NCBI GenBank assembly: GCA_023251915.1
Contig: JAHEXW010000003.1
Coordinates: forward strand, 11,033-75,032
DNA: 64,000 nucleotides
Reading direction: 5' to 3'
Origin: Actinomycetes bacterium
GTDB lineage: Bacteria; Actinomycetota; JAHEXW01
The notes under the pieces were generated by a model, which searched no databases, had not been told where the DNA came from, and was given only the letters and a program-made list of their open reading frames with translations. Below are positions 1,630 through 43,729 of the stretch, in pieces (the stretch's first letter is position 1; the number at the start of each line of letters is the position of its first letter). The position numbers were made by a program, and so were the translations under genes.

Positions 1630-1643
1630 GGAAAGCAGACAAA

Positions 1644-3587: not shown

Positions 3588-3612
3588 AGTTTAAGAAGGG
3601 AGACACGGGGTC

Positions 3613-5052
3613 TTGGCCCGAGAATTCATTTATCTGGTACCGGAAATAATAGTACTCGCGACAGCTCTGGGTGTGTTGGTGCTCGATCTGGTGCTGGGCG
3701 CCAAGCGCAAGCCGCTTATCTTAGCGCTTGCCTCTGTCGCCGGGCTGCTGGCGGCGGCTGGATTTACCGCGAACCTCATGGGACAGCGGGCCATTGTGAT
3801 GGCGGACATGTTCGTCATCGATTCGTTTGGCCTCGTGCTCAAGGTCGTTATCTTGGTCGGCGCCGCGTTATCGGTTCTCTTGGCGGTTGGGTTTCTAGAG
3901 AGACCGAAATCGCATCCCGGGGAATATGATTTCCTGATTGTGGCCTCCACTCTGGGGATGATGGTCATGACAGGCTCGAACAACCTATTGCTGGCCTTTC
4001 TTGGAATTCAGCTAACCAGTATCCCTCTGTATATATTGGCGGGCTTTAAGCGCAATGACAGTAAATCTAGCGAGGCCGCCCTTAAATATTTCTTACTGGG
4101 CGTTCTTACAGCCGCCCTCATGTTATACGGCATGTCATTACTATATGGCCTGACGGGGACGCTTAATCTGACAACTATTGCGGCTCGCCTGGGCGGGATA
4201 AAGACCAACGACCCGGTTTTGTTCTTAGGTATGGTCTTCATAATAGCCGGCTTCAGTTTCAAGATCGCCGCCGTGCCGTTCCACTTTTGGGCGCCTGACG
4301 TCTACGAAGGGTCGCCGACCTGCGTGACAGCGTTCATTTCGGCTGTCCCCAAGATTGCCGGCTTCGCGGTTCTGTTGCGACTGGTCTACACAGCCTTCCC
4401 GGCCTTGACTCCGCAATGGACAGGTTTAATGGCGCTTATGGCAGTACTGACTATGGTGACGGGCAATATCATGGCCATCCCGCAAAAGGACATCAAGCGG
4501 ATGCTGGCGTTTTCCGGGATCGCGCATGTAGGGTACGCTTTGATCGCGTTGGCCGTACCGGGCCAGAACGCCATGGGTGCGCTCGTATTTTACCTGTTGG
4601 CATACTCCGCGATGACCGCGGGCGCCTTCACGATCGTCGTCGCGGTCGGCCGCGTTTCCCATGAGCACCAAATCACGAGTTTCGCCGGCTTGGGTACACG
4701 GGCGCCGGTCCTGGCGGCGGCGATGACCGTGTTCTTGCTGTCTATGCTTGGTTTTCCGTTGACAGCCGGTTTCACGGGAAAGTTTCTGGTATTCAGCGCG
4801 GCCATCGAGAAACACTATGTCTGGTTGGCGCTGATCGGGGTTATCAATAGCGTCATCTCACTTTACTACTACTTTGGCGTCGTCCGGCAGATGTATCTGA
4901 CACCTGCGCGCGCAACGACGAAAATGCAGGTATCGGGTTTGGTATGGCTGCTGATCGCAATAGCGTTAACGGTAACGTTCGCTCTGGGCATCTACCCCGA
5001 GCCGGTAATTAATCTGACGCGTCATCTTGTTGTTCTATTTGCCAGGTTCTAG
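3613..5052 (+). CDS. nuoN: NADH-quinone oxidoreductase subunit N (TTG start)
   Basis: 479 aa; SSEAALKYFLLG, FKIAAVPFHFWAPDVYEGSPT, KRMLAFSGIAH, PLTAGFTGKF. Confidence 0.95.
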   Translation: MAREFIYLVPEIIVLATALGVLVLDLVLGAKRKPLILALASVAGLLAAAGFTANLMGQRAIVMADMFVIDSFGLVLKVVILVGAALSVLLAVGFLERPKSHPGEYDFLIVASTLGMMVMTGSNNLLLAFLGIQLTSIPLYILAGFKRNDSKSSEAALKYFLLGVLTAALMLYGMSLLYGLTGTLNLTTIAARLGGIKTNDPVLFLGMVFIIAGFSFKIAAVPFHFWAPDVYEGSPTCVTAFISAVPKIAGFAVLLRLVYTAFPALTPQWTGLMALMAVLTMVTGNIMAIPQKDIKRMLAFSGIAHVGYALIALAVPGQNAMGALVFYLLAYSAMTAGAFTIVVAVGRVSHEHQITSFAGLGTRAPVLAAAMTVFLLSMLGFPLTAGFTGKFLVFSAAIEKHYVWLALIGVINSVISLYYYFGVVRQMYLTPARATTKMQVSGLVWLLIAIALTVTFALGIYPEPVINLTRHLVVLFARF

Positions 5053-21631: not shown

Positions 21632-23944
21632 ATGGCGAGAGAGCGAATCCGTTTATTAATCAAAGGTGTCGTTCAAGGGGTCGGATTCCGGCCCTTTGTT
21701 TATCAGCTGGCGCAACGGCACGATGTGTCCGGATTCGTCCTCAATACCGGTGAGGGCGTTGTTGTCGAGGCTGAAGGTGAACTTAAAGACCTGGAGCGTT
21801 TCCGCCACGCGCTGAAGCCGGAAGCTCCGCCCCGCGCCGTCATCGAGTCGATCAGCCCGCGCATCATGCACGTCCAGGGCGACGCCGGGTTCGTTATTCA
21901 ACCTAGTCTGGCCCAACCCGACGAATTTCAACTAGTTTCTCCGGACATCGCTACCTGCGACGATTGCGCGGCGGAAGTCTTCGATCCAGCCGACCGACGT
22001 TGGCGCTACCCCTTTACAAACTGCACTAATTGCGGGCCCCGGTTCACCATTATCGAAGACATGCCTTACGACCGGCCCAAAACCACCATGAATAAATTTG
22101 AGATGTGTTCGGATTGCCAGCGGGAGTATGATGATCCGAATAACCGGCGCTTTCATGCCCAACCAAACGCTTGTCCGGTGTGTGGGCCGAGGCTGTCGTT
22201 TGTTGGCAGACGACCCCAGGACCAGACGACCGCAGACCAGCAAACCGTAAACCTTGAGGGCGAAGAGGCCCTAGCGGCGGCGGTCGAGATGTTGCAAGCC
22301 GGGCAGATCGTCGCCATCAAGGGACTGGGTGGTTTCCAGCTGGCCTGTGACGCGGGTAACGAAGACGCCGTAAAACGACTGCGCGACAAGAAGCATCGCT
22401 ATGGCAAGCCGCTGGCGGTGATGACGGAGACGATCAAGGAGGCCGCGGAGATATGTTTTATCAATGCCGCGGAACAAGAGCTGCTAGAGTCTCCGGAACG
22501 TCCGATCGTTCTGCTGCGCCGCCGCCCTAAAGACGTTGTCGCGCCGAACATCGCACCAGGCAACAACTATATCGGCATTATGCTTCCCTACACGCCGCTG
22601 CATCAACTACTGCTGCGTGACACAGGGCTGATATTGGTCATGACAAGCGGAAATATAAGCGAGGAGCCGATTGCCGCCGAAAACACCGAGGGATTGCGAC
22701 GTCTCGAACATGTCGCCGACGGCTGGCTGCTGCACGACCGAGATATCTACTCCCGCTATGACGATCCGGTTGTCCGTATTGTCGAGGGACACCGCGTTAT
22801 GATCCGGCGCGCCCGTGGCTACGCACCCTACCCGGTTCACCTGACTTTTAAGGCCAAGAAAGAGGTTTTAGCCGTCGGCGGTGAACTCAAAAGCACGTTT
22901 TGTCTTCTTAAGGAAGGCTACGGGTTCGTGTCACAGCATATTGGCGACATGGAAAATGTGGAAACGTTTGAGCATTTCGAACGGACGCTTGAGCTTTACA
23001 AGCGACTGTTCCGAATTAATCCTGAGGTCGTCGCCTGTGACATGCATCCGGATTACTTCTCGTCCAAATTCGCGCGCGATCTCAAGGCGCCCCGTTTGGT
23101 TGAGGTCCAGCATCACCACGCGCACATCGTCAGCTGCGCGGTTGAGAACGGCTGGCGCGACCAGGTAATCGGTGTTGCTTTTGACGGTACCGGTTACGGC
23201 ACCGACGGCACGATCTGGGGCGGGGAATTTCTGCTGGCGGACTGGGCCGGTTTCGAACGGGCCGCTCATCTTAAGCAGATTCGGTTACCCGGTGGCGAGG
23301 CAGCGGTTGAGAAGCCCTACCGGACCGCGCTCTCCTATCTGTTGAGCACATATGGTGACGCCTACGCCGATCTGGGGTTGGACTTCTTGAGCCGGCTTGA
23401 TCCGGTGGAAACAGAGATTCTGGAACGTCAGGTGGCGACCGGCTTGTTGTCCCCCTTAACGTCCAGCGCCGGTCGGTTATTTGACGCCGTCTCTTCGCTC
23501 ATCGGGGTGCGGGACGCTATCGAGTTCGAGGGGCAAGCGGCAATCGAACTGGAGATGCAGTCAGACGAGGCCGAGCACGGCCGTTATGAGTTTGACTATA
23601 TAGCGGCGCCGGGCCAACCGACGGTGATCAACACCGACCCGCTGATCAAGGGCATTGTTAATGATTTGCTGAAATGCGTGCCAGCCGCCGTTATCGGTGC
23701 GAAATTCCAGGCCACGGTCGCGGACATAATAGTCGCGACCTGCGGGCGCCTAAGGGAAGCGACTGGCGTGCGAACAGTCGCCTTGTCAGGCGGTGTTTTT
23801 CAAAACGCGACTTTATACGCGAGAGTTATCAAGGGTCTAAAGAAGCAGGATTTTCGCTTACTGTTGCACAAGGAACTGCCCGTTAACGACGGCGGCATTT
23901 CTCTAGGGCAGGCTGTTGTCGCGCACACCCTCGCGGCCACGTAA
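21632..23944 (+). CDS. hypF: Carbamoyltransferase HypF
   Basis: Acylphosphatase domain GVVQGVGFRPFV, zinc fingers CDDC..CTNC / CSDC..CPVC, IKGLGGFQLAC, QHHHAH, DGTGYG, PVNDGG. Confidence 0.97.
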   Translation: MARERIRLLIKGVVQGVGFRPFVYQLAQRHDVSGFVLNTGEGVVVEAEGELKDLERFRHALKPEAPPRAVIESISPRIMHVQGDAGFVIQPSLAQPDEFQLVSPDIATCDDCAAEVFDPADRRWRYPFTNCTNCGPRFTIIEDMPYDRPKTTMNKFEMCSDCQREYDDPNNRRFHAQPNACPVCGPRLSFVGRRPQDQTTADQQTVNLEGEEALAAAVEMLQAGQIVAIKGLGGFQLACDAGNEDAVKRLRDKKHRYGKPLAVMTETIKEAAEICFINAAEQELLESPERPIVLLRRRPKDVVAPNIAPGNNYIGIMLPYTPLHQLLLRDTGLILVMTSGNISEEPIAAENTEGLRRLEHVADGWLLHDRDIYSRYDDPVVRIVEGHRVMIRRARGYAPYPVHLTFKAKKEVLAVGGELKSTFCLLKEGYGFVSQHIGDMENVETFEHFERTLELYKRLFRINPEVVACDMHPDYFSSKFARDLKAPRLVEVQHHHAHIVSCAVENGWRDQVIGVAFDGTGYGTDGTIWGGEFLLADWAGFERAAHLKQIRLPGGEAAVEKPYRTALSYLLSTYGDAYADLGLDFLSRLDPVETEILERQVATGLLSPLTSSAGRLFDAVSSLIGVRDAIEFEGQAAIELEMQSDEAEHGRYEFDYIAAPGQPTVINTDPLIKGIVNDLLKCVPAAVIGAKFQATVADIIVATCGRLREATGVRTVALSGGVFQNATLYARVIKGLKKQDFRLLLHKELPVNDGGISLGQAVVAHTLAAT

Positions 23945-24122: not shown

Positions 24123-27100
24123 ATGTCCAAAATACTAAAAACCCTATGGCTCGGTCTGATTATGTCCTTTCTTCTAATTACCGGCACCGCGGCGGCGGCT
24201 TCAACAGCGCCGGCTGCGATCGGCACCATTCCCGTAAGCGCTGCGGCTCTAGCTGTTACGCCGTCTATGGCTTGGTCCAGCAGCTCTTTCGATGCGTCAA
24301 AAGCAAAGGTTGCGAGCGGCGATTTCGATGGTGACGGAATGAAAGACACCGCCATCCTTTATGACTACGGTCACGCGACCACACGTCTCTGGCTAATGAA
24401 ATCCACCGGCACAACGTTCACGTCTAGCCTGGCGTGGTCCAGCGGCAGCGGCAATTTTGATTGGAGCAAAGCGAAGATGGCCGCCGGTGATTTTAACGGT
24501 GACGGGAAATCCGATTTGGCGATCGCGTATGACTATGGCAGCGCCGACACGGGCGTTTGGATCTTCCGATCTAACGGGACGACGTTTACACCCACCCTTA
24601 CCTGGAATAGCGGTTCCAATAACTTTGATTGGAGCAAAATAAAGATGGCTGCGGGCGATGTCGACGGTGCCGCTCCGGCTCGTGACGACTTGATGTTTCT
24701 GTATGACTACGGACACGCCACCAGCCGAATTTGGATAATGAAATCGAATGGAACCACGCTTACGCCTAGCCTAGCCTGGTCGAGTGTCTCCGGCTCTTTT
24801 GACTGGAGCAAGGCAATGATCACGGCCGCTGATTACGATGGTAACGGCCAGGCCGACATGGGGATTCTTTATGACTATGGTATAGCCACCAGCCGCCTAT
24901 GGCTGATGAAATCGAACGGTACTACTATGACGTCTAATCTTGCCTGGTCGAGTGCGCCTGGCAGCTGGGACTGGAATCGCTCTAGGATAGTTTCGGGTGA
25001 GTTCAGCGGAGACGGCCAGGCTGACATCGTCATTCTCTACGACTATGGCTTTGCGACCAGCCGTCTATGGCGTTTTAAGTCTGCGGGAAGCACGATGTCC
25101 GCGGTCAATATCTGGTATAGCGGCGTCGGTGATTTTGACGCTGCGCGCACCCAAGCAACGTGCGGCGACTACGATAACGATTCGATTTGCGAGGTGGCCG
25201 CCCTTTATGACTACGGCCAAACGGCAAGCGCACTGTGGTTATTTGATGATATCAACGCCAGTTTCCTCCCAACCCTCACCTGGCCCGCGCCGGCCGCGAT
25301 TACATATGGCACGGCACTCAGTTCAACCCAGCTGAATGCCACGGCCAGTGTGCCGGGAGTGTTTGTGTATACGCCGGCCGCCGGGACGATTCTTAACGCC
25401 GGAGCCGGACGTGCTCTGTCGGTAATGTTTACGCCGACCGATCTGGTTAATTACGATCCTGTAACTCAAACAACAGCAATCACAGTGAATAAGGCCAATC
25501 AGGCGATCACTTTCGGGCCTCTGGGCGCTAAGGCTGCCAGCGATCCGCCTTTCACCGTATCCGCGACCGCAACTTCAGGTCTGGCAGTGACGTTCAGCAT
25601 AGTTAGCGGCCCCGCGACAATTAACGGCAACACGGTTACGCTTACTGGAGCGGGAACGGTTGTCGTTCGCGCCAGCCAGGCAGGCAACGGCAACTATAAC
25701 GCCGCCGCCCCTGTCGACCAATCGTTCGCGGTAACAATTGGTACGCCGACAATATCATGGCCCACGCCGGCTGACATTCCATACGGCACGGCGTTAAGCT
25801 CGACTCAGCTAAACGCGACCGCGGGCGGCGTCTCTGGAACATTCGTCTACACGCCGCCGGCTGGCACGATTCTAGAAGTCGGACCCAATCAGGTCTTATC
25901 GGTGACCTTTACGCCGACTGACCCGCTTAGTTTCAACCCGGTCACGCAAACCACAACCATCAATGTTGTTAAAGCCAGTCCCGGGTTGGCTTGGGTCACG
26001 CCCTCGGCCATCACCTACGGTACACCGTTAAGCTCTACTCAGCTAAACGCTACGGCGGCTGTGGCCGGAGTATTTGTTTACACCCCGACGGCCGGGACAG
26101 TCCTTGACGCCGGCGTCGGCCAGACATTGTCGGTCACTTTTACACCGACCGACACGACTCACTATAATTCGGCGACCTTAACAACAACGATTACAGTCAA
26201 CAAAGCCGAATCAGAAGTCAACTGGACAAATCCGGCGGACATCGTCTACGGCACCATGCTGAGCTCTACCCAGCTGAACGCAACGGCGGAAGTGCCCGGA
26301 GAGTTCGTCTATACACCGCCGAGCGGCACTCTCCTTAACGCTGGTATGGGACAGACGCTTTCTGTCGAATTCACGCCTGATGACGAGACCAACTATCGGG
26401 AAGAAACGGCCACGGTGACTATAAACGTTCTGAAGGCTGATCCGGTCATCACGTGGGCGTCGCCGGCCGACATCACTTACGGCACACCTCTAAGCTCGAC
26501 CCAGCTCGACGCAACCTCGGGCGGAGTTGCCGGGGCTTTCGTGTATACCCCGCCGGCCGGAACCGTCTTGAACGCCGGGGCGGGGCAGACATTGTCAGTT
26601 ACCTTCACACCGACAAATACCACAAACTACAACTCGGCGACCCAGACGACAACGATCACCGTCCTGAAGGCCGATCCTGTTATTGCCTGGGCGGCGCCGG
26701 CCGACATTACCTGGCCGACACCGCTTAGCTCTACTCAGCTCAACGCGACCTCAGGCGGAGTCGCGGGAGCTTTCGTGTACACGCCGCCAGCCGGAACGGT
26801 GCTCTCTGAGGGCCTTGGGCAGACGCTGTCGGTAGATTTCACACCGACGGACACGACAAACTACAACTCGGCGACCCAGACGACAACGATTAACGTTTTG
26901 CCAAGCAACGAGAAAGCGATAATCAGCTTCTCGATACCGACAGGGGCGACGACAATTAACGAAACAGCGCACACCGTCGAGGTCGCTGTTCCAGGAGAAA
27001 CCGATGTGGCCGCGCTTGTCCCGACAATCACGGTGTCGCCGATGGCCTTTGTTTGGCCGTCTAGCGGGGTCGCCCAGGACTTCACGTTCCCGATGCCCTA

Positions 27101-28490
27101 CCTTGTTACCGCGCAAAACGGCACGACTCAGTTTTACCAGGTGACAGTGGTAATTGATGATACAGGTCCGACCGGCGGAACCTTGTCTTGGAACACGGCG
27201 AATCATCCCGCCGTCATGACCGTCGAACCCACCGGCAGTCTCTACGCGGCCGGCACGATAGCTGGTCCCACAGACTCGCTGAACGGTTTGAGCGTCGTCT
27301 TCACCGATGCCCATCTTGCCCTTGCTGACGTCCCCGTCCTGTTCGACGGAGCCGCCAACGGAGTGATGCGTTACACAGGCAGCGGTGACATTTGGGATTA
27401 TTGGCCGGATACGCCGATTATCCTGGGCGAAGGCGAACACACCATGTTGGCTAACTTCATTGATACCGTCGGTAACGCAACACCGATGATTGTCACATTA
27501 CCGGTAGCGGACATTACAGCGCCGGTTATTGCCTTGAACGGAATTACACCGGTCAACATCTTCGTTGACGCTGATTATTTTGACGCAGGGGCAACGGCAA
27601 CCGATGATGTCGATGGCTTGTTCCAGGCAACCGCTACAGGCACGGTCGATACTCACGCGATCGGCACCTATACGATCACCTATAACGCGACGGACGCGGC
27701 GGGTAATCACGCCACGCCAGTCACCAGAACGGTGAACGTGCTTCCGAAGGTCTCGGTCACAGCCGCCGCCGACACCCGGGTTTTGGCGTCCAACGGCAGC
27801 TCGACGGTCCTAGCGGAGTTCTTGCCGGTCCTGACGTCACCGCTCTATCGCGGGAATGACGCTTACTATGGGATTCGCGCGGTTACGGCTGCCGACTCGG
27901 GCCCAAGTCTCCATTGGGAGATAACGGTCCACAAAGCGTCGACTGTGCTGACAGCCGGAATGGCGACCCTTACCCAGAAAGGCCGGTATGACGCGACGAG
28001 TGGTCTTGTGGCAGATGCCGCCTACGGGCCATCGGTTGTCGGTAACGACATCTTATTCACCGGAGCCTCGGGTTGGACCACGGTAACAGGAGACGACTTC
28101 ACAGACGTTGATAACGTTCATTTCAACGCTAGCGCACCTCAGGGAGACTATACGGTCACCCGGCGGCTGATCGACGAGGCGACCGGCAGCGTGATATCTA
28201 ATACTTACACGCAAACGGTCACGGTCGTCGCGAATCCCGCCAAAGCGATTATCGGATTCACGATTCCGACAGGCGTCACGATAATCAATGAGAGCGCGAA
28301 AACAATCGCTGTGTCTGTTCCGACGGGCACGGATGTGACGGCGCTTGTGCCGACGGTTACTGTATCGCCGCTGGCGCACGTGGTGCCGGCGAGCGGGCTG
28401 GCGAGGGATTTCACCTTCCCGGTGGCTTACTTGGTAACTGCGGATAATGGAACAACGCAATTCTATCTGGTGACAGTCACCGTACTTTAG
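24123..28490 (+). CDS. Large secreted repeat protein: FG-GAP/VCBS-like propeller plus Ig-like stalk repeats
   Basis: Signal peptide; six GDFxGDG...LYDYG repeats; six ~78-aa TYGTxLSSTQLNAT repeats; two KAIIxFxIP...DFTFP..YLVTAxNGTTQFY domains; APVIALNG...GATATDDVDG (DUF5011-like). Confidence 0.9.
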   Translation: MSKILKTLWLGLIMSFLLITGTAAAASTAPAAIGTIPVSAAALAVTPSMAWSSSSFDASKAKVASGDFDGDGMKDTAILYDYGHATTRLWLMKSTGTTFTSSLAWSSGSGNFDWSKAKMAAGDFNGDGKSDLAIAYDYGSADTGVWIFRSNGTTFTPTLTWNSGSNNFDWSKIKMAAGDVDGAAPARDDLMFLYDYGHATSRIWIMKSNGTTLTPSLAWSSVSGSFDWSKAMITAADYDGNGQADMGILYDYGIATSRLWLMKSNGTTMTSNLAWSSAPGSWDWNRSRIVSGEFSGDGQADIVILYDYGFATSRLWRFKSAGSTMSAVNIWYSGVGDFDAARTQATCGDYDNDSICEVAALYDYGQTASALWLFDDINASFLPTLTWPAPAAITYGTALSSTQLNATASVPGVFVYTPAAGTILNAGAGRALSVMFTPTDLVNYDPVTQTTAITVNKANQAITFGPLGAKAASDPPFTVSATATSGLAVTFSIVSGPATINGNTVTLTGAGTVVVRASQAGNGNYNAAAPVDQSFAVTIGTPTISWPTPADIPYGTALSSTQLNATAGGVSGTFVYTPPAGTILEVGPNQVLSVTFTPTDPLSFNPVTQTTTINVVKASPGLAWVTPSAITYGTPLSSTQLNATAAVAGVFVYTPTAGTVLDAGVGQTLSVTFTPTDTTHYNSATLTTTITVNKAESEVNWTNPADIVYGTMLSSTQLNATAEVPGEFVYTPPSGTLLNAGMGQTLSVEFTPDDETNYREETATVTINVLKADPVITWASPADITYGTPLSSTQLDATSGGVAGAFVYTPPAGTVLNAGAGQTLSVTFTPTNTTNYNSATQTTTITVLKADPVIAWAAPADITWPTPLSSTQLNATSGGVAGAFVYTPPAGTVLSEGLGQTLSVDFTPTDTTNYNSATQTTTINVLPSNEKAIISFSIPTGATTINETAHTVEVAVPGETDVAALVPTITVSPMAFVWPSSGVAQDFTFPMPYLVTAQNGTTQFYQVTVVIDDTGPTGGTLSWNTANHPAVMTVEPTGSLYAAGTIAGPTDSLNGLSVVFTDAHLALADVPVLFDGAANGVMRYTGSGDIWDYWPDTPIILGEGEHTMLANFIDTVGNATPMIVTLPVADITAPVIALNGITPVNIFVDADYFDAGATATDDVDGLFQATATGTVDTHAIGTYTITYNATDAAGNHATPVTRTVNVLPKVSVTAAADTRVLASNGSSTVLAEFLPVLTSPLYRGNDAYYGIRAVTAADSGPSLHWEITVHKASTVLTAGMATLTQKGRYDATSGLVADAAYGPSVVGNDILFTGASGWTTVTGDDFTDVDNVHFNASAPQGDYTVTRRLIDEATGSVISNTYTQTVTVVANPAKAIIGFTIPTGVTIINESAKTIAVSVPTGTDVTALVPTVTVSPLAHVVPASGLARDFTFPVAYLVTADNGTTQFYLVTVTVL

Positions 28491-33140: not shown

Positions 33141-34775
33141 ATGCCAATAGCCAAGTTTAGGAGTCCGTTTGTTTCCGCGATTTGCGGACTGGCCCTCTCG
33201 GCGCTGATGATCGGGTCTCTGCCCGCCGTCGCCATCGCGAACGGTGACAACCCGGGACAAGAGACAGGCCGGATTCGTGCCGCCGTCAGCGCTGCCACCA
33301 CGATCTACGCCGACGCGGTAAACGGCAGTGATTCGACCGGCGACGGCACGCAAGGCAATCCTTATAAAAGCTTGAGCATGGCGGCAGGGAACGCTTATGA
33401 CGGAGATACGATCCAGCTGCTGCCGGGCACCTACAGCCCGTCAACGACGAATGAGAGCTTCTACATCGGAATGGCGGCGGTAACCCTAAGGGGTTCCGGG
33501 AGCGACAGCACGATTCTGGATGGTGAGAACGACTGGACCCAGGACAACATCAACTCGTATACGAGAATGCTTAATTACAGCAACGATAGTGGGACAACGG
33601 CGTCTATTGAGGACATGACGATCCGGGGCGCCGGTGAGGCGGCCGTGGACATTTACCGCGGCAATCTGACCATTAACAATTGCGTCTTCGCCAAAAACTA
33701 CCATGACGACAGCGGTGCGGCCATCCTGATGCGCTATGGCAACGGAACGGAAAAAATATCCATAACGAATTGTGTCTTTACTGAGAACAACTGTGACGAG
33801 AGCGGCGGGGCCATCTGTCTTTACAATCCTGGCGACACGGAGATAAGTCAGAATACGTTTTTGGAGAACGAGGCGGGCCAGGGCGCCGCGATCTTTTCGG
33901 AGGGCTCCGGTGGCAGCGCCGTTGACATCCACTGCAACAAGATCCAGGATTCAACCACTCAATATAACGGCGCGGTTTACCTGGATAACACGTCGGATTC
34001 CACGGCGGTTAAATTCTACAACAACCTGGTAACCGGGAACATTTCGGCGGGCAACTCCACGTCCGCCTTATTCTTGTCCAACGACGTCTCGACCAGCGTC
34101 TATAACAACACCTTCTCCGCCAATGCCGGGGGTAATACACTCTACGACTGGGGCGAGGTCAAGAACGCGTTGGTCTACAACAATATCTTCTGGGGCGACG
34201 CGCCCGTCGATACGGAATTGGTCGCAGGTGACTATTACTACAACGACATTCAAAATATGAGCGCGGCCGGCTTTGATACCAACATGCACGTTGATCCGCT
34301 GTTCGTGGACGCGGCCAACGGCGATTATCATCTGCAAGCCGGCAGTCCGTGCCGCGGCGCCGGCGTTTCCGATTCGACCTACCCGGCGCCCGATACCGAT
34401 CTCGACGGAGTCGGCCGACCTACCGGCACCGGTCACGTGTCGATGGGCGCATACGAGTTCGTCACAATCCAGTTCGACCCGCTTCCCGGTCTGAGCGCGC
34501 CTATCAATTTGGACGAAGGACAAGTGGTTTGGCAGAACCCGTTTATCATCAAGGTCTTCCCGACCAGCAATGCCGGCATCCAGCGCGTTGAGTTTTACGT
34601 TGACGACGTCTTGATTGGCACGGTTACCGAGCCGGACGCGTCCGGTGTCTATTCTTGCGCTTGGGATACGGCGAAGTATCATTCGCTGGTGCGCGTCGTG
34701 GCTTATGACAACCAGGGCGGTAAGGTGACGCTGACCCGCAACACGACAGTCGCGTTGCCCTATACCGGACGCTAG
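33141..34775 (+). CDS. Secreted parallel beta-helix protein with C-terminal Ig-like domain and terminal LPYTG
   Basis: Signal peptide; IYADAVNGSDSTGDGT.GNPYKSL (DUF1565-like); N..GGAI repeats; DPLFVD...DYHL..GSPC..AG; RVEFYVD; ends LPYTGR*. Confidence 0.85.
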   Translation: MPIAKFRSPFVSAICGLALSALMIGSLPAVAIANGDNPGQETGRIRAAVSAATTIYADAVNGSDSTGDGTQGNPYKSLSMAAGNAYDGDTIQLLPGTYSPSTTNESFYIGMAAVTLRGSGSDSTILDGENDWTQDNINSYTRMLNYSNDSGTTASIEDMTIRGAGEAAVDIYRGNLTINNCVFAKNYHDDSGAAILMRYGNGTEKISITNCVFTENNCDESGGAICLYNPGDTEISQNTFLENEAGQGAAIFSEGSGGSAVDIHCNKIQDSTTQYNGAVYLDNTSDSTAVKFYNNLVTGNISAGNSTSALFLSNDVSTSVYNNTFSANAGGNTLYDWGEVKNALVYNNIFWGDAPVDTELVAGDYYYNDIQNMSAAGFDTNMHVDPLFVDAANGDYHLQAGSPCRGAGVSDSTYPAPDTDLDGVGRPTGTGHVSMGAYEFVTIQFDPLPGLSAPINLDEGQVVWQNPFIIKVFPTSNAGIQRVEFYVDDVLIGTVTEPDASGVYSCAWDTAKYHSLVRVVAYDNQGGKVTLTRNTTVALPYTGR

Positions 34776-35914
34776 CGCTTTAGGAATAGATTGGCGATCG
34801 GTCCCCGCGTGACGCGCAAAGCTCGTTGCGGACACAGCTCGATGCAGCAGAAACAACGGATACATTTGTCGTAGTCAAAGACGGGCTTGCCGTCGACTAC
34901 TTGAACGGCGCCGACGGGACACGGACGCGGGCAGTGTCCGCAGCCGGTGCAGAGGTCAGGCAACAGTTCCGGGCGTTCTTGCCGTAAAAACCAACCGCTG
35001 ACCGTTTGGGCGACCGATGGAACATGGAACCGCTTGGTCTGGCCCGCCATCTCCTTGACTACGTCAGGCAATGGTTCGCCGACGATCTCGATCTGCTCAA
35101 TATCGGTGACACCCAAACCGCGCCGACCGGCGTTAACTAAAATCGGCACAGTCTTAGGGTCGACACCCAAGATGAGCGCCGCGACCGTATCCAGCGCGAC
35201 GCCGTCGCGACTGGCTAAGATTAGCCCGGGCCAGACCCTATCCTGCTCGCGCCACCGGCCGCCCAATCCGACGACTGCATCCATGACGCACAGCCGGGGC
35301 CTCAGAACACTGTAGATGTCCACAATTAGCGCGGCGAATTTCTCGTGCGTTGTTCCGAGCGCGTGATAAGCGCTTTTTGTACCGCCCGGTACAGTGCCGA
35401 AAAGGTTCTTAACCGCCCCTGTTGTTTTGGTCAGGATATGAGTCTTAAGTTTCGGAGCATCGATTATCAGATCTGCCTCGACGGCCGGGCGCGCCAGAAA
35501 CGCCTCCGGTAAAACCTCAGCGGATGGAATCGGCACAGCCACAGGCTCCAGGCCATCGAAGCTGACAACGCAGGCGCCTTGACGAGCGCAAGCGTCGCGG
35601 ATGCCGGTCGTCTGCAGCGCTCGCTCCGTCGCCCCGTGCCAGCGCAGTCCGGAGGCGTCTCCTACAGTGACGACCGCATTACGTTCGGCCGCCATTTTGA
35701 TGAGCGCTTCGGTAACCCGGTAATCGGTCGTATTGCCAGACTCTCCGTCGCTGGTCTCAACAAGGTTGGGCTTAACGAGCACTTTCTCGCCGACGTCGAT
35801 TTCATCCAAAATCGCCAAGCCGCCGCACATAAACACCGCCTGCCGCACAGCGGCTTCGACGTCCGAATAATCAATCGGGGTGCGAACGATGGCGACCTTT
35901 GCTTTAGCCATCAT
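34772..35914 (-). CDS. DUF362 Fe-S protein fused to a 2x[4Fe-4S] ferredoxin
   Basis: KVLVKPN, PKLKTH, AVKNLFG, DGVALD; CTGCGHCPRPCP and CIRCFCCIELCP. Confidence 0.9.
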   Translation of the reverse strand: MMAKAKVAIVRTPIDYSDVEAAVRQAVFMCGGLAILDEIDVGEKVLVKPNLVETSDGESGNTTDYRVTEALIKMAAERNAVVTVGDASGLRWHGATERALQTTGIRDACARQGACVVSFDGLEPVAVPIPSAEVLPEAFLARPAVEADLIIDAPKLKTHILTKTTGAVKNLFGTVPGGTKSAYHALGTTHEKFAALIVDIYSVLRPRLCVMDAVVGLGGRWREQDRVWPGLILASRDGVALDTVAALILGVDPKTVPILVNAGRRGLGVTDIEQIEIVGEPLPDVVKEMAGQTKRFHVPSVAQTVSGWFLRQERPELLPDLCTGCGHCPRPCPVGAVQVVDGKPVFDYDKCIRCFCCIELCPQRALRVTRGPIANLFLKR

Positions 35915-36668
35915 CAGCCTTCTTTGGGTCAGTTTCATGGGTCGCAGTAACGGCGGCTCGCAACGCGTCGAGCAGAATATGGCCGGCGGCATGCTGCATG
36001 TTGTCGTTGAAATCAGGGTCAAAAGTCATACTGGCCCGGCAAGGATAGCTGCCCCAGTATTTGGCTGCCCACCATTCGAGCTTGTCATCGAGCGCTTTAC
36101 CGACCAAATTACGGGCGACAAAATAAGTGTCACCGCAGGGCGCCGAGCGGATGACATCGACAGCGGTAATTACGTTATCAATGACCGTGATCTTGATCTC
36201 CGGCCGGCCGATCTTCAAGTCACGCATCATCGCCGTTATGGCGGGCCGGGCGGAATCTTCAACGAGTGAGCAGAATGGTTTAGGAAAGGCGGTCTCCAGT
36301 CCGGCTGCGGCGCAGCGTCTAGCGACCTCGCCGCGGGACCAAGGGGTTGTCCAGGCGGGATCCTCGCGCGGCACGACGATCGCCCGGCCGCCGGCCGCCG
36401 CGACGGCCGCCGGTAATTCCAACATTATCTCTTCGTGGATGTTGATGGCGATCAAAACATCGTGCGGCAGAAGAGAGTCAGGCAAAAAAGCCGCGGGGTT
36501 GTCTAAGTATTCCGGCAGAACCGCGGGGTGAGTGACAATCTGCACGATATGGTCGCGCCGGTGCGCCGCGAACCCGGCAGCATACGCATCGTTGAAAAAG
36601 AGATCAAAGGGCCCGGCCGGCAGGGCCGAATCGCCATCGCTCATAACCAGGACAAGACGGGTCGGCAT
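35904..36668 (-). CDS. DUF166-family protein
   Basis: LPEYLDNP, IAINIH, PKPFCSL, IGRPE, V.VIRSAPCG.T, YPCRASM..D; family recognised from memory. Confidence 0.75.
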   Translation of the reverse strand: MPTRLVLVMSDGDSALPAGPFDLFFNDAYAAGFAAHRRDHIVQIVTHPAVLPEYLDNPAAFLPDSLLPHDVLIAINIHEEIMLELPAAVAAAGGRAIVVPREDPAWTTPWSRGEVARRCAAAGLETAFPKPFCSLVEDSARPAITAMMRDLKIGRPEIKITVIDNVITAVDVIRSAPCGDTYFVARNLVGKALDDKLEWWAAKYWGSYPCRASMTFDPDFNDNMQHAAGHILLDALRAAVTATHETDPKKADDG

Positions 36669-36675
36669 GGTCGGT

Positions 36676-37581
36676 CTACACCAGGTAAAGGAGGTAATCG
36701 TAGGCGGTCAATGCGGCGCGCGCGCCGTCACCGGCGGCGATGATAATCTGTTTGTCAGGCTCGTCCGTGACGTCACCGGCAGCGAAGATGCCGGGACGGC
36801 TTGTTCGTCCGGAACGGTCGACGACTATTTCGCCGGTCGCATTCAGTTTGACCAAACCTTTGACAATGTCAGAGTTGGGCGTCAGCCCTATTTCGACAAA
36901 CACGCCGGTTACGGCGAGTCGTCGCGGCCGGCCGTTGACGTTAACGTCGATTGATTCAACCAGCTCGGTGCCGTCGATCCCGGTGACAGCAGTGTCTGTC
37001 AGGACCTCGACATTCTTATGATCATAGACCTTGTTTTCCAGAATCTCGTCGGCGGTTAGTTCCGGTCCCGCTTCTATCAAGTAGACCTTAGCGGCGATGT
37101 CTGCCAGCTGTAGAGCGGCTTCCGCCCCTGAGTTACCCCCGCCAACAACTGCCACGTCCGCGGCTGCGAACAAGGGCGCGTCGCAAGTGGCGCAATAGGT
37201 GATACCGCGGCCGCGAAACGTGTCTTCACCAGTAACGCCCAGCTGGCGGGGCGATTTGCCCGTTGCGATAATAACCGTGTGTGCCTGATGTTTACGTCCG
37301 TCCACGTCTTCAACGGCCCAGCCGTCCTGGCCGTCCGCGATCGATACAGCAGTTTTATAAACCATGTCCACCGCGAATTTCTTCAGATGTTCCTCGAACT
37401 TGTCGACCAGATCGCTGCCTTTGATGTAGTCAAAACCCAGATAGTTTTCAACTCCGCCGCTCCAAAGAGTCTGGCCGCCGACATCGGTCGTCAGCATTTT
37501 GACGCTCAACTGTTTGCGCGCGCAATACACCGCGGCGGTCATGCCCGCCGGTCCCGCGCCCAATATGATTACATCATTCAT
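36676..37581 (-). CDS. trxB: Thioredoxin reductase-like flavoprotein, AhpF/Cp34 type
   Basis: GAGPAG, GGQ..., ENYLG, IIATG, CATCD, GGGNSG, IFAAGD; IEAGPELTAD replaces the HRR NADPH motif. Confidence 0.9.
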   Translation of the reverse strand: MNDVIILGAGPAGMTAAVYCARKQLSVKMLTTDVGGQTLWSGGVENYLGFDYIKGSDLVDKFEEHLKKFAVDMVYKTAVSIADGQDGWAVEDVDGRKHQAHTVIIATGKSPRQLGVTGEDTFRGRGITYCATCDAPLFAAADVAVVGGGNSGAEAALQLADIAAKVYLIEAGPELTADEILENKVYDHKNVEVLTDTAVTGIDGTELVESIDVNVNGRPRRLAVTGVFVEIGLTPNSDIVKGLVKLNATGEIVVDRSGRTSRPGIFAAGDVTDEPDKQIIIAAGDGARAALTAYDYLLYLV

Positions 37582-37600
37582 CTAGCCTACCTTGTGTTAT

Positions 37601-37840
37601 TTATTTCAGAGCGGCCGTGATCTTGTCGCGATCGAAGCCCACTATGATGGTGCCGGCTATGTCGAGCACGGGCACAGTAAGTTGACTCGATTTCTTAATC
37701 ATCTCATGAAGTGCGTCGCGGTCGGCGGTAACGTCATGGTCTGTAAAAGCGACGCCCTGCTCGGTGAGCCAATCCTTGGCTTGGTGGCAGTGGGGTCAGG
37801 TCGGCGTGGAGTAAACGGTCACTTGCTTTGCTGCGGTCAT
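37601..37840 (-). CDS. Selenocysteine-containing glutaredoxin/NrdH-like redoxin (UPHC); missing from the ORF track
   Basis: MTAAKQVTVYSTPT-UGA-PHCHQAKDWLTEQGVAFTDHDVTADRDALHEMIKKSSQLTVPVLDIAGTIIVGFDRDKITAALK*; TGA at 37798-37796; AGGAGG RBS; frame open for 64 codons after TGA. Confidence 0.88.
37767..37781 (-). promoter_or_regulatory. Putative bacterial SECIS hairpin
   Basis: AGCCAA-GGA-TTGGCT; apical loop starts with G, ~21 nt 3' of the UGA. Confidence 0.6.
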
Positions 37841-37855
37841 CTCGTATACCTCCTC

Positions 37856-38593
37856 TTATCGTCCCAATAGGTTAAATGCCGTGTAAATCAAGCCGGTGCA
37901 GAACAGACCGGACAGCATTCCGATAAAATGCCACTTGATGTCATTGGGCGAGTTCTTGTCATTTAACCCCAGGATGAAAGGCAGATAGAATAACAAGAAG
38001 CCGGCCGCCGCCGCATAGGTAAAGGGAACAAACACGTCTAGCGACCCCAGCGACGGCATATTGAAACCGATTAAGGCCGGCACCACGGTGGTCGCGCCCA
38101 GGGCGGTGACCAGGTACCAGCTCGGCCGGGCATTTAGTAAGAGCGCGCCGATTGCCAGGCCTTCCAAGAGGAATATCAATGCGAGCAAAAGCGCTGGACC
38201 AATCGTAACGTTCAAGATTCCGCTCGCAACTTCATTGCTTGACGTAAGCGCGAAACCCAGATTGAACAGGCCGAGCGCAACAGCGAGAATGACGGAACGC
38301 CGGCGTTCTCCTACGACGAAAATCATAACCAGAGGGCTCACAAAGATGGCGAGCAATGCGACGACCGTAAAGACCCAGGGATTGGCAAAGATACCGCCGG
38401 CGAAAGTGTTGGCTTGGAACAACTCTGCCATCCGTCCAAGGACTCCCGAAACCATTGAAATGATAAAGAACAACACGGTGCCTGCGGCAAAGGCGTTTAT
38501 GACCAGCACGATACGTTTGGGAAGGTCTTGGGCGAGATAGACGGCCAATCCTATGAAAATGGCGATGACTGTCAACTGGGCAACTGGGTTCAT
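37856..38593 (-). CDS. Divergent ZIP/GufA-like membrane transporter
   Basis: ~8 TM; AFAAGTVLF, LLEGLAIGA, AAAGFLLF; canonical His/Asn metal ligands not evident; TATGCT 6 nt before ATG. Confidence 0.55.
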   Translation of the reverse strand: MNPVAQLTVIAIFIGLAVYLAQDLPKRIVLVINAFAAGTVLFFIISMVSGVLGRMAELFQANTFAGGIFANPWVFTVVALLAIFVSPLVMIFVVGERRRSVILAVALGLFNLGFALTSSNEVASGILNVTIGPALLLALIFLLEGLAIGALLLNARPSWYLVTALGATTVVPALIGFNMPSLGSLDVFVPFTYAAAAGFLLFYLPFILGLNDKNSPNDIKWHFIGMLSGLFCTGLIYTAFNLLGR

Positions 38594-38688
38594 AGACACA
38601 GCATAATCTCGCCAAGTTCATAGCGTCAAGGCGGCCGCTCGTGCTAAAATCTTCGTTACACGTGTTACTAAAAGGAGGGCTTGCGCCA

Positions 38689-38934
38689 ATGTGTCTTGGA
38701 GTGCCAGGTAAGGTCATCGCGGTTAAAGACGACTGGATTGCCGAAGTAGATATTAGCGGCGTGGTTATTGACGTCGGTCTGCAGTTCACCCCCGAAGCCA
38801 AGGTGGGCGACTATGTTTTGGTCCACACCGGCTACGCGATGCATGTCATGGACGAGGCCGAGGCCATGGAAACCCTAAAGCTGCTTGAGGAAATGGGTGC
38901 GGCGGCGGAATTGCCTGATGGTCAAATATCTTAG
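38689..38934 (+). CDS. hypC: Hydrogenase maturation chaperone HypC
   Basis: MCLGVPGKV, VGDYVLVHTGYAM; AGGAGG RBS. Confidence 0.96.
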   Translation: MCLGVPGKVIAVKDDWIAEVDISGVVIDVGLQFTPEAKVGDYVLVHTGYAMHVMDEAEAMETLKLLEEMGAAAELPDGQIS

Positions 38935-40024
38935 CGAGTTTCGCAACCCCGAACTTGCCGCCGGAATTCTCAGGCGCCTAGAGAAGGTTTCCACCCGCCC
39001 GGTTAGCTTCATGGAAGTGTGCGGTACGCATACCGTCTCCATCAGCAAGAACGGCCTCCGGCAGGCAGTTCCCGACAACATTCGCTTACTCTCCGGTCCC
39101 GGTTGCCCGGTCTGCGTGACAGCCAACGCCGATATTGACAGGATGATTGCGATAGCCGCGCAACCCGACGTTATTTTGACGACCTTCGGGGACATGATCA
39201 AGGTTCCCGGATCCTACTCATCACTCGCTAAAGAGAAGGCGGCGGGGTCGGACATCCGAATCGTCTATTCAACAAGAGACGCCGTGAAGCTGGCCCAAGA
39301 CAACCCCGACAAGCGCGTTGTCTTCTATGGTGTCGGTTTCGAGACCACGACGCCGACAGTGGCCATGTCTATACTCGACGCGCGGCAGAAGAACGTTGCC
39401 AACTACAGTGTTCTCTCAGTCCATAAGGTTGTTCCGCCGGCTATGAAGGCGCTCCTTGATTTGGGCGAGGTTACTCTGGACGGGTTCATTTGCCCGGGTC
39501 ACGTGTCTGTTGTAATCGGAACGCGGCCTTACGAGTTTATTCCCAAAGACTATGGGATCCCTTGTGTTGTCACCGGTTTTGAGCCTCTCGATATTCTGGA
39601 AGGTGTATTAATGCTGGTCGAACAGGTCGAACGGGGCGAAGCCAAGGTGGAAAACGCATACAAGCGGTTGGTTACAACCGACGGCAATAAGATCGCCATG
39701 GAGACGATCCACAGGGTGTTTGAACCTGGAGACGCCGACTGGCGAGGGATCGGCGTTATTCCGGGCAGCGGCCTGAATATCCGGCAAGAATTTGCCGACT
39801 TCGACGCGGCCCGCTTGTTCGCCGGGGTCGAGGTGCCGCCCGTCAAAGAGCACAAAGGCTGCCGCTGCGGTGAAGTGCTGCGCGGCGTTATCTATCCGTA
39901 CGATTGCGGTCTCTTCGGCAAGGCCTGCGTTCCCGAACATCCCATCGGACCGTGTATGGTGTCGGGAGAGGGCAGCTGTGCCGCCTACTATCGCTACGAC
40001 GAGAAACCAAGGACTGGTGCTTGA
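38918..40024 (+). CDS. hypD: Hydrogenase maturation protein HypD
   Basis: MEVCGTHT, GPGCPVCV, GFETT, PGHVS, CRCGEVLRG, PIGPCMVSGEGSCAAYY. Confidence 0.97.
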   Translation: MVKYLSEFRNPELAAGILRRLEKVSTRPVSFMEVCGTHTVSISKNGLRQAVPDNIRLLSGPGCPVCVTANADIDRMIAIAAQPDVILTTFGDMIKVPGSYSSLAKEKAAGSDIRIVYSTRDAVKLAQDNPDKRVVFYGVGFETTTPTVAMSILDARQKNVANYSVLSVHKVVPPAMKALLDLGEVTLDGFICPGHVSVVIGTRPYEFIPKDYGIPCVVTGFEPLDILEGVLMLVEQVERGEAKVENAYKRLVTTDGNKIAMETIHRVFEPGDADWRGIGVIPGSGLNIRQEFADFDAARLFAGVEVPPVKEHKGCRCGEVLRGVIYPYDCGLFGKACVPEHPIGPCMVSGEGSCAAYYRYDEKPRTGA

Positions 40025-40025
40025 T

Positions 40026-41039
40026 ATGGCTGACGATAGGGTTCTGCTGGCGCACGGAAGCGGCGGGAAGGTCTCGCATCGTTTGATTGACGAGGTCTTC
40101 ATGAAGGTCTTCACCGATCCCGTTCTAAACCGCCAGGATGATGCGGCGGTTGTGCCGGGCGGCGAACAGCTGGCCTTCACGACCGACTCCTACGTCGTCA
40201 AGCCCATATTCTTTCCCGGCGGCGACATCGGGAAGCTGGCGGTTTGCGGCACAGTGAACGATCTATCAATGAGCGGCGCCGTTCCGAAATACATCAGCGC
40301 GGCTTTTGTGATCGAAGAAGGCTTCGCCTTTGCGGAACTATATAGAGTGGTCGAATCGATGGCGGCCGCGGCCGATGAAGCCGGCGTGGCCATTGTCACC
40401 GGTGACACGAAAGTCGTCGAACGCGGGAGCGCCGACCAGATATTCATAAATACCGCGGGCGTCGGTATCATGCGACCCGGCGCAGACATCGCTGCCGCCA
40501 ACCTTCGTCCCGGCGACGCGGTGATTATCTCCGGCAGTATTGGTGACCACGGAGTCGCGGTTATGTCGACTCGAGAAGGGTTGTCATTCCGGACGGCGAT
40601 CGAGAGTGATTGCGCCCCGTTGAACGGCTTAATCGCCGCGGTGATCGACAGCGGTGCGGACGTACATGCTCTGCGTGATCCCACCAGAGGCGGTTTGGCC
40701 AGCACGCTGAATGAGTTCGCGGCCCAGTCCGGCGTTGTCGTCGCCATCGATGAAACGCAGGTGTTGGTTGCCGACCAGGTCGCTGGCGCGTGTGAGATGC
40801 TGGGACTCGACCCGTACCAGGTCGCCAACGAAGGCAAGGTTGTTGCGGTCGTCGCGGCGGCGGACGCTGACAAAGCCGTGGCCGCCATGCGCACCTCGCC
40901 ATATGGTCGGGAGGCGCGAATCATCGGTATTGTGGCCGAGGCGCCTGACGGCAAGCCTCGTGTCACGTTGAAAACAACCGTCGGCACAACGAGAATTCTG
41001 GACATGCTGGTCGGAGAACAGCTGCCGCGCATCTGTTAG
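40026..41039 (+). CDS. hypE: Hydrogenase maturation protein HypE
   Basis: AHGSGG, FTTDSYVV, GGDIGKLAVCGTVND, TGDTKVV, RDPTRGG, ANEG, C-terminal PRIC. Confidence 0.97.
   Translation: MADDRVLLAHGSGGKVSHRLIDEVFMKVFTDPVLNRQDDAAVVPGGEQLAFTTDSYVVKPIFFPGGDIGKLAVCGTVNDLSMSGAVPKYISAAFVIEEGFAFAELYRVVESMAAAADEAGVAIVTGDTKVVERGSADQIFINTAGVGIMRPGADIAAANLRPGDAVIISGSIGDHGVAVMSTREGLSFRTAIESDCAPLNGLIAAVIDSGADVHALRDPTRGGLASTLNEFAAQSGVVVAIDETQVLVADQVAGACEMLGLDPYQVANEGKVVAVVAAADADKAVAAMRTSPYGREARIIGIVAEAPDGKPRVTLKTTVGTTRILDMLVGEQLPRIC

Positions 41040-43653: not shown

Positions 43654-43711
<58 letters not shown>

Positions 43712-43729
<18 letters not shown>

Follow-up and report, generated by a model that had tools for sequence, protein, structure and literature searches.

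Does a TGA triplet in the middle of a short, uncalled stretch of an actinomycete contig end a reading frame, or is it read as selenocysteine (Sec)? The question is raised by one locus within the 64,000 nucleotides of contig JAHEXW010000003.1 analysed here (the whole stretch, referred to below as the window), where a sequence-only reading had proposed a gene for a small glutaredoxin, here called grx, hidden from open reading frame (ORF) calls by a TGA in frame. The coordinates that it gave, the TGA at codon 15 (37798-37796) and the read-through product of 79 residues proved exact to the base, and the TVPV and GFD motifs, the AGGAGG ribosome-binding site and the distance of 19 nt to a downstream reductase gene are all present as described. 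Taken together, the comparisons presented here indicate that this is almost certainly a real selenoprotein glutaredoxin gene, presumably expressed. Its elements are as follows.

37601..37840, minus strand: predicted selenoprotein glutaredoxin gene, 79 codons, T-U-P-H-C active site (translation, Pfam, TIGR02196, PDB match, AlphaFold model, ratio of non-synonymous to synonymous substitution rates, dN/dS)
37796..37798, minus strand: in-frame TGA, codon 15, predicted to be read as Sec, the attacking residue of UxxC (conserved in orthologues)
37849..37854, minus strand: Shine-Dalgarno sequence AGGAGG, 8-nt spacer to the ATG (sequence)

The frame starts with ATG at 37840-37838 and ends with TAA at 37603-37601, and its read-through product is MTAAKQVTVYSTPTUPHCHQAKDWLTEQGVAFTDHDVTADRDALHEMIKKSSQLTVPVLDIAGTIIVGFDRDKITAALK; the ATG of the next gene follows at 37581. 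As the sequence-only reading had said of ORF calls, the stretch is left empty by the public gene calls, which on both assemblies show a gap of about 275 bp at this position. For the window locus and its orthologues alike, grx is either absent from the public calls or present as a 33-residue C-terminal fragment (L047:4332-4433), and the closest match to the full Grx protein among 5.8 billion predicted proteins reaches 64-68% identity, so that the orthologue group is invisible in protein databases. The named database matches are mostly proteins of Patescibacteria, Omnitrophota and Woesearchaeota with Cys.

The simplest explanation of such a codon would be a nonsense mutation in a dead gene, or an error of sequencing or assembly, and the skipping of grx by gene callers, together with the lack of coverage of the region in three metatranscriptomes, could be taken in its favor. 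The TGA is, however, base-identical in three assemblies from two samples: a Logan contig from a groundwater metagenome (L023, depth 9.5) shows no difference from the window over the whole of grx, and a second-sample contig from the same study (X2) spans the TGA, again without difference. The ENA assembly carries a reductase gene identical to that of the window and has its gene-call gap at the same position. Orthologues were sought by a scan of a genome collection, which yielded L001 (JANXYU01), and through homologues of the neighboring Lon protein, which yielded L047/L048 (Ga0265292_1000002), L049 (GCA_936416925.1), L050 (GCA_040960625.1) and L052 (GCA_020052375.1); in the loci found through Lon, grx lies in an uncalled gap between the genes for a membrane protein and the reductase. 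All five are syntenic Actinomycetota loci adjoining hypCDE-lon, and all five keep the TGA, at codon 15 in four of them and at the homologous codon 17 in L052, in proteins 58-89% identical to the window Grx. L001 shares the gene order throughout (identities: Lon 99%, HypCDE 95-99%, membrane protein 85%, Grx 87%, reductase 87%, DUF166 protein 80%, DUF362 protein 91%), and the active-site stretch reads YSTPTUPYCHQAKDWL in the orthologues found through Lon, with YTTTTUPYC in L052. The sequence-only reading had suggested aligning homologues at this column and named close relatives with a Cys codon and no conserved hairpin as the outcome that would speak for a mutation or an error; the alignment gave the opposite, since five of five close relatives have the TGA and the same hairpin.

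The sequence downstream of the TGA is under selection as protein. Between the window and L001, codons 16-79 differ by 28 synonymous and 7 non-synonymous changes (rate of synonymous substitution, dS, 1.45; dN/dS 0.034), which indicates strong purifying selection and hence translation that continues past the TGA. An alternative start cannot explain this selection, because the first Met downstream of the TGA is residue 46 and no start codon precedes it. AGGAGG stands 5' of the start in five of five orthologues examined, and ribosome-binding site and start codon are both conserved. With the TGA retained in five orthologues despite saturating synonymous divergence, with dN/dS this low behind a conserved start, and with the assemblies in agreement base for base, we consider a dead gene or an artefact to be refuted for practical purposes and its probability negligible. 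A global reassignment of TGA (codes 4 or 25) was also considered and is ruled out, as TGA terminates 12 of the 56 long ORFs in the window, and the orthologous grx genes of L047, L049 and L050 themselves end with it (where the window has TAA, and L001 TAG). In these three orthologues the same triplet is thus read in two ways within a single short gene, and some local signal is needed to tell the two apart. Judged from the substitution patterns, the UGA of codon 15 is translated and does not terminate, and the residue that it encodes is the attacking one of UxxC.

Which residue is inserted is suggested by the homologues. The catalytic column is an invariant Cys in 47 of 47 nearest predicted homologues, which agrees with the earlier placing of the TGA exactly on the attacking Cys of CxxC. 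In the wider family, the column is occupied by TGA in nine further genes, from other phyla and from metagenomes (L011 from Syntrophaceae, L014 from Clostridiaceae, L015 from Acidobacteriota, and L039-L044 from metagenomes), and Cys is found there in about 30 other loci. A maximum-likelihood tree requires five changes of the Sec label, at least two of them forced by well-supported branches, and in it the window and L001 group as a Sec pair of their own (support 100/92).

The local signal is sought in a hairpin shortly downstream of the TGA, which had been proposed from the letters as a selenocysteine insertion sequence (SECIS).

37767..37781, minus strand: SECIS-like apical hairpin AGCCAA-GGA-UUGGCU, 6 bp, 3-nt loop with G first (fold, conservation, synonymous constraint)
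37751..37797, minus strand: extended predicted stem (lower helix) around the apical hairpin (fold prediction)

Counted from the TGA, the stem begins at 14 nt and the loop at 20 nt, so that the earlier figure of about 21 nt holds for the loop but not for the stem. L001, L047, L049 and L050 do not keep the lower helix, and support is therefore limited to the apical hairpin. The bacterial SECIS has been modeled as an apical loop of 3-9 nt on a stem of 4-16 bp, with a G at loop position one or two (mostly N1-G-[G/U]-N-N2, with N1 and N2 paired), a distance of 16-37 nt from UGA to loop and a minimum free energy of -7.5 kcal/mol or lower (PMC13188914). The window hairpin falls within all four limits, with an A-GGA-U loop on 6 bp, a spacing of 20 nt and, over the 63 nt that follow from the UGA, a minimum free energy of -18.4 kcal/mol. 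To this fit with the generic bacterial model, which the sequence-only reading had pointed out, is added a constraint on synonymous sites. The 15-nt hairpin is identical in six of six actinobacterial orthologues (the window included). Where these six share a residue, the codon is invariant at four of five positions within the hairpin versus two of 22 elsewhere (Fisher p = 0.004; p = 0.005 in a version with five sequences); the codons of Q20, A21, K22 and D23 never vary, and the exception is the third base of Leu25, which lies outside the 6-bp stem. In the comparison with L001, codons 9-26 have a dS of only 0.32, where codons 27-79 reach 1.65 (Fisher p about 0.02). This shows that a hairpin with its loop 20 nt downstream of the UGA is held constant at the level of RNA, and we infer that it acts as a bacterial SECIS recruiting SelB and Sec-tRNA(Sec).

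The same pairing of TGA and hairpin recurs in the wider family. All ten Sec forms analysed have a hairpin of 6-8 bp at the same distance, with a 3-nt, G-first loop in nine and a 5-nt loop in L011; few Cys forms have a hairpin there. Over a 26-nt segment the 23 Cys forms average -2.6 kcal/mol in free energy of folding and the ten Sec forms -7.1 kcal/mol (Mann-Whitney p = 3e-4), and in a control with synonymous shuffles p <= 0.05 is reached by six of ten Sec forms and four of 22 Cys forms. Between L039 and L044 a U-A pair of the hairpin is replaced by a compensatory C-G pair. The last two loci belong, with L015 and L041-L043, to a separate glutaredoxin-like clade with the motif G-U-M-F-C, in which every member seen has the TGA; its named locus, L015, is from Acidobacteriota (Acidiferrales) and the others are metagenome contigs. 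The hairpin of this clade is GUGAAAGA-GUU-UCUUUCAC, with the compensatory change to GCGAAAGA...UCUUUCGC in L044.

The lineage itself had been taken to be actinobacterial, and the relatives bear this out: L001 is titled "Actinobacteria bacterium", and the named homologues of Lon are from Actinomycetota. A more distant relative, the metagenome-assembled genome L054 (Actinomycetota, GCA_030019215.1; Lon 67% identical), has a Sec-decoding cluster directly upstream of lon.

L054:4108-7765, minus strand: selA-selB-tRNA-Sec(UCA) cluster (tRNA by ARAGORN and by Rfam RF01852, 74.9 bits)

With the SelA of L054 as query, many actinobacterial SelA proteins were found, among them a group with 71-94% identity (P0254-P0263, P0266-P0268) in which selA-selB pairs lie beside LppM/PGA_cap genes. 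The contig of L054 also holds a molybdenum-cofactor riboswitch (L054:1796-1975, RF01055, 40.4 bits) ahead of moaA/moaC. We regard Sec decoding as shown in the wider lineage; in the organism of the window it is strongly implied by the conservation seen in the sequences.

Several results weigh against the assignment of codon 15 to Sec under the control of this hairpin. Considered alone, the 71-nt fold of the window is not exceptional among dinucleotide shuffles (z = -1.03, with 30 of 200 shuffles as stable), and in a synonymous-codon shuffle of the window gene the stability of the hairpin is within what its codons predict (mean -4.6, observed -6.1 kcal/mol, p = 0.25). Rfam searches, at the gathering threshold over the window and at E <= 10 over 37550-37900, returned only tRNAs and noise. 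Neither selA, selB, selD nor a tRNA-Sec was found in the 64-kb window (Rfam, and Pfam of about 50 ORFs), no member of the SelA group comes from an assembly or contig that also carries the Sec-type grx or shares high-identity genes with the window, and the three metatranscriptomes mentioned above, from the same study as L023 and X2, do not cover the region. The value of p = 0.25 arises because the peptide Q-A-K-D-W-L itself nearly encodes the hairpin; single-sequence fold tests being unremarkable, the support for the hairpin comes from comparison between sequences.

It could accordingly be argued that codon 15 is Sec and that the hairpin is a mere by-product of the peptide QAKDWL, with the true SelB-binding element elsewhere or of another shape. 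Synonymous shuffles do often give similar hairpins, a similar one is present in a Cys form, L003, with the peptide KAKQWL, and the unconserved lower helix points the same way. The codons of Q20, A21, K22 and D23, however, are fixed in six orthologues while 20 of the 22 other conserved-residue codons vary; distance, loop size and the G-first loop agree with the consensus, and in other Sec clades unrelated peptides (KEFLS, KEYLS) go with such a hairpin too, equally far from the UGA. We consider a by-product very improbable.

A further alternative dispenses with the Sec system altogether: the UGA would be read through by a near-cognate tRNA (Trp, Cys or Gly), or leak as UGA-C, to give a protein without selenium. 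UGA followed by C is a weak terminator, the Sec machinery of L054 is not tied to the genome of the window, and in the single-gene shuffle the hairpin is within what the codons predict. Insertion of Trp or Gly, however, would destroy an active site whose column is Cys in every one of the nearest homologues; leakage does not need the synonymous hairpin sites that are frozen in six orthologues; the pairing of TGA and hairpin recurs in taxa that use Sec (Syntrophaceae, Clostridiaceae, Acidobacteriota); and a relative, L054, does have selA, selB and tRNA-Sec. To this explanation, too, we would give only a slight chance, and we therefore proceed with codon 15 as a Sec codon served by the downstream hairpin.

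As to what kind of redoxin is encoded, the protein matches Pfam Glutaredoxin PF00462 (E = 1.5e-17, 63.9 bits; cutoff 22.9) and the YruB family TIGR02196 (90.2 bits; cutoff 88.55) over model positions 1-74 of 74. Scores remain below the cutoffs for NrdH (TIGR02194, 44.3 bits; cutoff 85.75), for the UXX-star model NF041212 (58.6 bits; cutoff 66) and for the Grx3 and mycoredoxin models. The description as "NrdH/YruB-like" in the sequence-only reading thus stands for its YruB part, and for NrdH holds as a functional analogy but not by score. Among PDB entries it is closest to 7C10, the dithiol cGrx1 of Clostridium oremlandii, with which it shares 33 of 73 residues (45%; E = 7e-17). An AlphaFold model (predicted local distance difference test, pLDDT, 86) shows elements in the order b-a-b-a-b-b-a with residue 15 at the N-terminus of helix 1, and superposes on 7C10 with template-modeling (TM) scores of 0.87/0.91 and a root-mean-square deviation of 1.2 A, followed by the Cp9/NrdH-like BC3987, methanoredoxin and NrdH. 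Very probably, then, the gene encodes a Sec glutaredoxin of the YruB/Cp9 type, whose closest characterised relative is the native selenoprotein cGrx1.

Selenoproteins of this kind are already known. UxxC glutaredoxins have been on record since 2004-2005 (PMC1088965, PMC1794560), with examples from the Sargasso Sea and from genome surveys of 2005-2006, glutaredoxin (PF00462, UxxC) is among the experimentally verified prokaryotic selenoproteins (PMC13188914), and genome surveys have Actinobacteria on record as a phylum rich in selenoprotein families. What is new is membership in this lineage and the gene context. The cGrx1 protein of Clostridium (Alkaliphilus) oremlandii OhILAs (7C10/7C12), a selenoprotein in its native form (motif U(C)PXC) that was crystallised with Sec replaced by Cys (PMC7642778), resembles the window Grx in fold, size, the U-P-H-C motif and the TGA at the attacking residue. 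Its host, however, is clostridial, glutathione has been proposed as its reductant and a selenoprotein MsrA as its client (PMC7642778), whereas the window Grx is coupled to an AhpF-type reductase of its own, has no msrA nearby and belongs to an actinobacterial host. UXX-star proteins (NF041212, NF041114) share the small glutaredoxin fold and Sec at the active site but carry, three residues ahead of the true stop, another Sec that the window gene lacks, ending as it does in ALK-TAA (TAG in L001).

The gene context is that of a compact group of genes on the minus strand, listed here in the order of transcription, with grx between the first and the second.

37856..38599, minus strand: 247-residue polytopic membrane protein, first operon gene (no family match; hydropathy)
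36676..37581, minus strand: thioredoxin-reductase-like flavoprotein of the AhpF C-terminal type, 301 residues, CATC disulfide (Pfam Pyr_redox_2, TIGR03140, PDB)
35904..36668, minus strand: DUF166 protein with three conserved Cys (Pfam PF02593, E = 4e-46), 7 nt after the reductase gene
34772..35911, minus strand: DUF362 protein with a C-terminal 2x[4Fe-4S] ferredoxin domain, last operon gene (Pfam DUF362 and Fer4), overlapping the end of the DUF166 gene

That these genes form an operon is suggested by the gaps of 15, 19 and 7 nt and by the DUF166/DUF362 overlap; a scan of the operon for promoters and terminators gave counts no higher than in shuffles. The reductase scores 322 bits against AhpF TIGR03140 on model positions 213-513, which is below the cutoff because the N-terminal domain is absent, and 301 bits against the thioredoxin reductase model (cutoff 343); in the PDB it is closest to AhpF (1HYU and 1FL2, E = 1e-67). 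The strand that binds the dinucleotide, VYLIEAGPELTAD, lines up with VTLLEFAPEMKAD of AhpF and not with the HRRD motif of NADPH-dependent thioredoxin reductases, and the enzyme probably uses NADH. The redoxin gene stands beside a thioredoxin-reductase-like gene in all orthologues and in at least ten loci with the Cys form from other phyla, and the flavoprotein is probably the reductase of the Sec-type Grx.

The membrane protein has no match in Pfam or NCBIfam even at E = 1, and an identity as "ZIP-like" was for this reason rejected. A hydropathy scan gave ten overlapping hydrophobic windows, corresponding to roughly seven membrane segments, and the protein is found at the same position in all orthologous loci with 45-85% identity. 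The orthologous operons keep DUF166, too; selenoproteins occur in this family (NCBIfam NF041372; PMC13188914), and the window copy is without TGA. The DUF362 gene is conserved in L001, L049 and L050.

A possible client of the redoxin comes into view in the relatives. In four of five orthologous loci (L047/L048, L049, L050 and L052) a gene for a class II (B12-dependent) ribonucleotide reductase (RNR) lies between the reductase and DUF166 genes.

L047:415-3405, L049:1634-3379, L050:1738-3486 and L052:1-1719, all minus strand: class II RNR gene (TIGR02504)

The RNR of these relatives scores 691-699 bits against NrdJ TIGR02504 (cutoff 400), and that of L047 carries an intein with a LAGLIDADG domain. 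In the two C-termini that were read (L049 and L050) the protein ends in DCRAHYCPA or DCRSHYCPA, a Cx4C tail, the type of C-terminus to which thioredoxin-type donors pass electrons. Where these relatives carry the RNR gene, the window (36668-36676) and L001 have only a 7-nt gap.

Three known systems bear on how such genes might work together. In Clostridium pasteurianum, the NADH-dependent, thioredoxin-reductase-like enzyme Cp34 reduces the redoxin Cp9, which in turn reduces the peroxiredoxin Cp20 (PMC3720550). The window shares with it a YruB-type redoxin, matching TIGR02196, encoded beside a thioredoxin-reductase-like flavoprotein, but Cp9 has Cys where the window redoxin has Sec, and in place of a peroxiredoxin the operon holds the membrane protein, DUF166 and the DUF362-ferredoxin protein, with NrdJ in four of the five orthologous loci. 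NrdH-redoxins likewise have a glutaredoxin fold of 75-80 residues and are encoded with an RNR and a reductase of the thioredoxin reductase type, as is the redoxin of L047, L049, L050 and L052; they differ in having CVQC (C-V/M-Q-C) where the window has UPHC, and in serving, in an nrdHIEF context, a class Ib RNR where the relatives have the class II NrdJ. The third is AhpF, of which the adjacent reductase resembles the C-terminal two thirds, with a separate redoxin in place of the N-terminal redoxin domain of the fusion, a domain for which UxxC selenoproteins are likewise known. AhpF, however, is one fusion and the window has two genes, and the redoxin matches the PDO/AhpF-N model TIGR02187 weakly (18.9 bits, against 185).

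By analogy with these systems, the redoxin would cycle between a selenolate/thiol form and a Sec15-Cys18 selenenylsulfide, electrons passing from NADH through the FAD and CATC disulfide of the reductase to the selenenylsulfide and from there to disulfides of client proteins. Re-reduction would fall to the AhpF-type, probably NADH-using flavoprotein encoded 19 nt downstream, in a manner resembling Cp34/Cp9 or the two halves of AhpF, and the class II RNR of the four orthologous loci would be the most likely ancestral client. We tentatively suggest that the Sec-redoxin and its private AhpF-type reductase might form a dedicated selenium-dependent hydrogen-donor system for class II RNR in an anaerobic clade of Actinomycetota, a selenoprotein counterpart of NrdH, although we hold this to be rather doubtful. 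Under the same proposal, and with the same reserve, DUF166 and the DUF362-ferredoxin protein might provide a ferredoxin-linked input of electrons or a further step of deoxynucleotide synthesis, and the genome of the window might have kept the reductase-redoxin module after nrdJ left the operon. Against the predicted path of electrons in the organism of the window, it counts that no RNR gene was found in the window operon or anywhere in the 64-kb window, and that no peroxiredoxin, the client in the clostridial system, was found in either; the chain from reductase through redoxin to client is moreover drawn from gene order and homology.

The locus very probably places the use of Sec, with a conserved putative SECIS, in an uncultured lineage of Actinomycetota from anaerobic groundwater. 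It would also couple a redoxin that is a selenoprotein with an NADH-type reductase of its own and, in relatives, with the reduction of ribonucleotides. The understanding of Sec decoding itself is left unchanged by this gene.

The surroundings of the operon hold some further features. Other selenoprotein genes were sought in the window by an all-frame scan for ORFs read through a single TGA, by gap analysis and by Pfam of about 50 ORFs, and none was found. The hydrogenase maturation genes are split: hypF lies at 21632-23944, and hypC-hypD-hypE, on the lon side, lie within 38689-41039, divergent from the redox operon and just before lon; the window has no hydrogenase structural gene. A tRNA-Gly(CCC) gene (43654-43729) follows lon in the window and likewise in L047, L049, L050 and L052. 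In L052 a cassette with a phage-type integrase and a Toprim/DUF3987 primase-like gene (L052:10443-11674) stands directly after this tRNA gene, which marks it as a used integration site in the clade. Farther away, on the plus strand, 24123-28490 encode what is probably a large surface protein, 1455 residues long, with FG-GAP and several Ig-like domains (CFAP65/HYDIN-type, Bact_surface_Ig-like, DUF5018), and 169-5052, also on the plus strand, hold three consecutive Proton_antipo_M genes (NuoL/M/N or Mrp type), followed by two proteins with tandem Usp domains.

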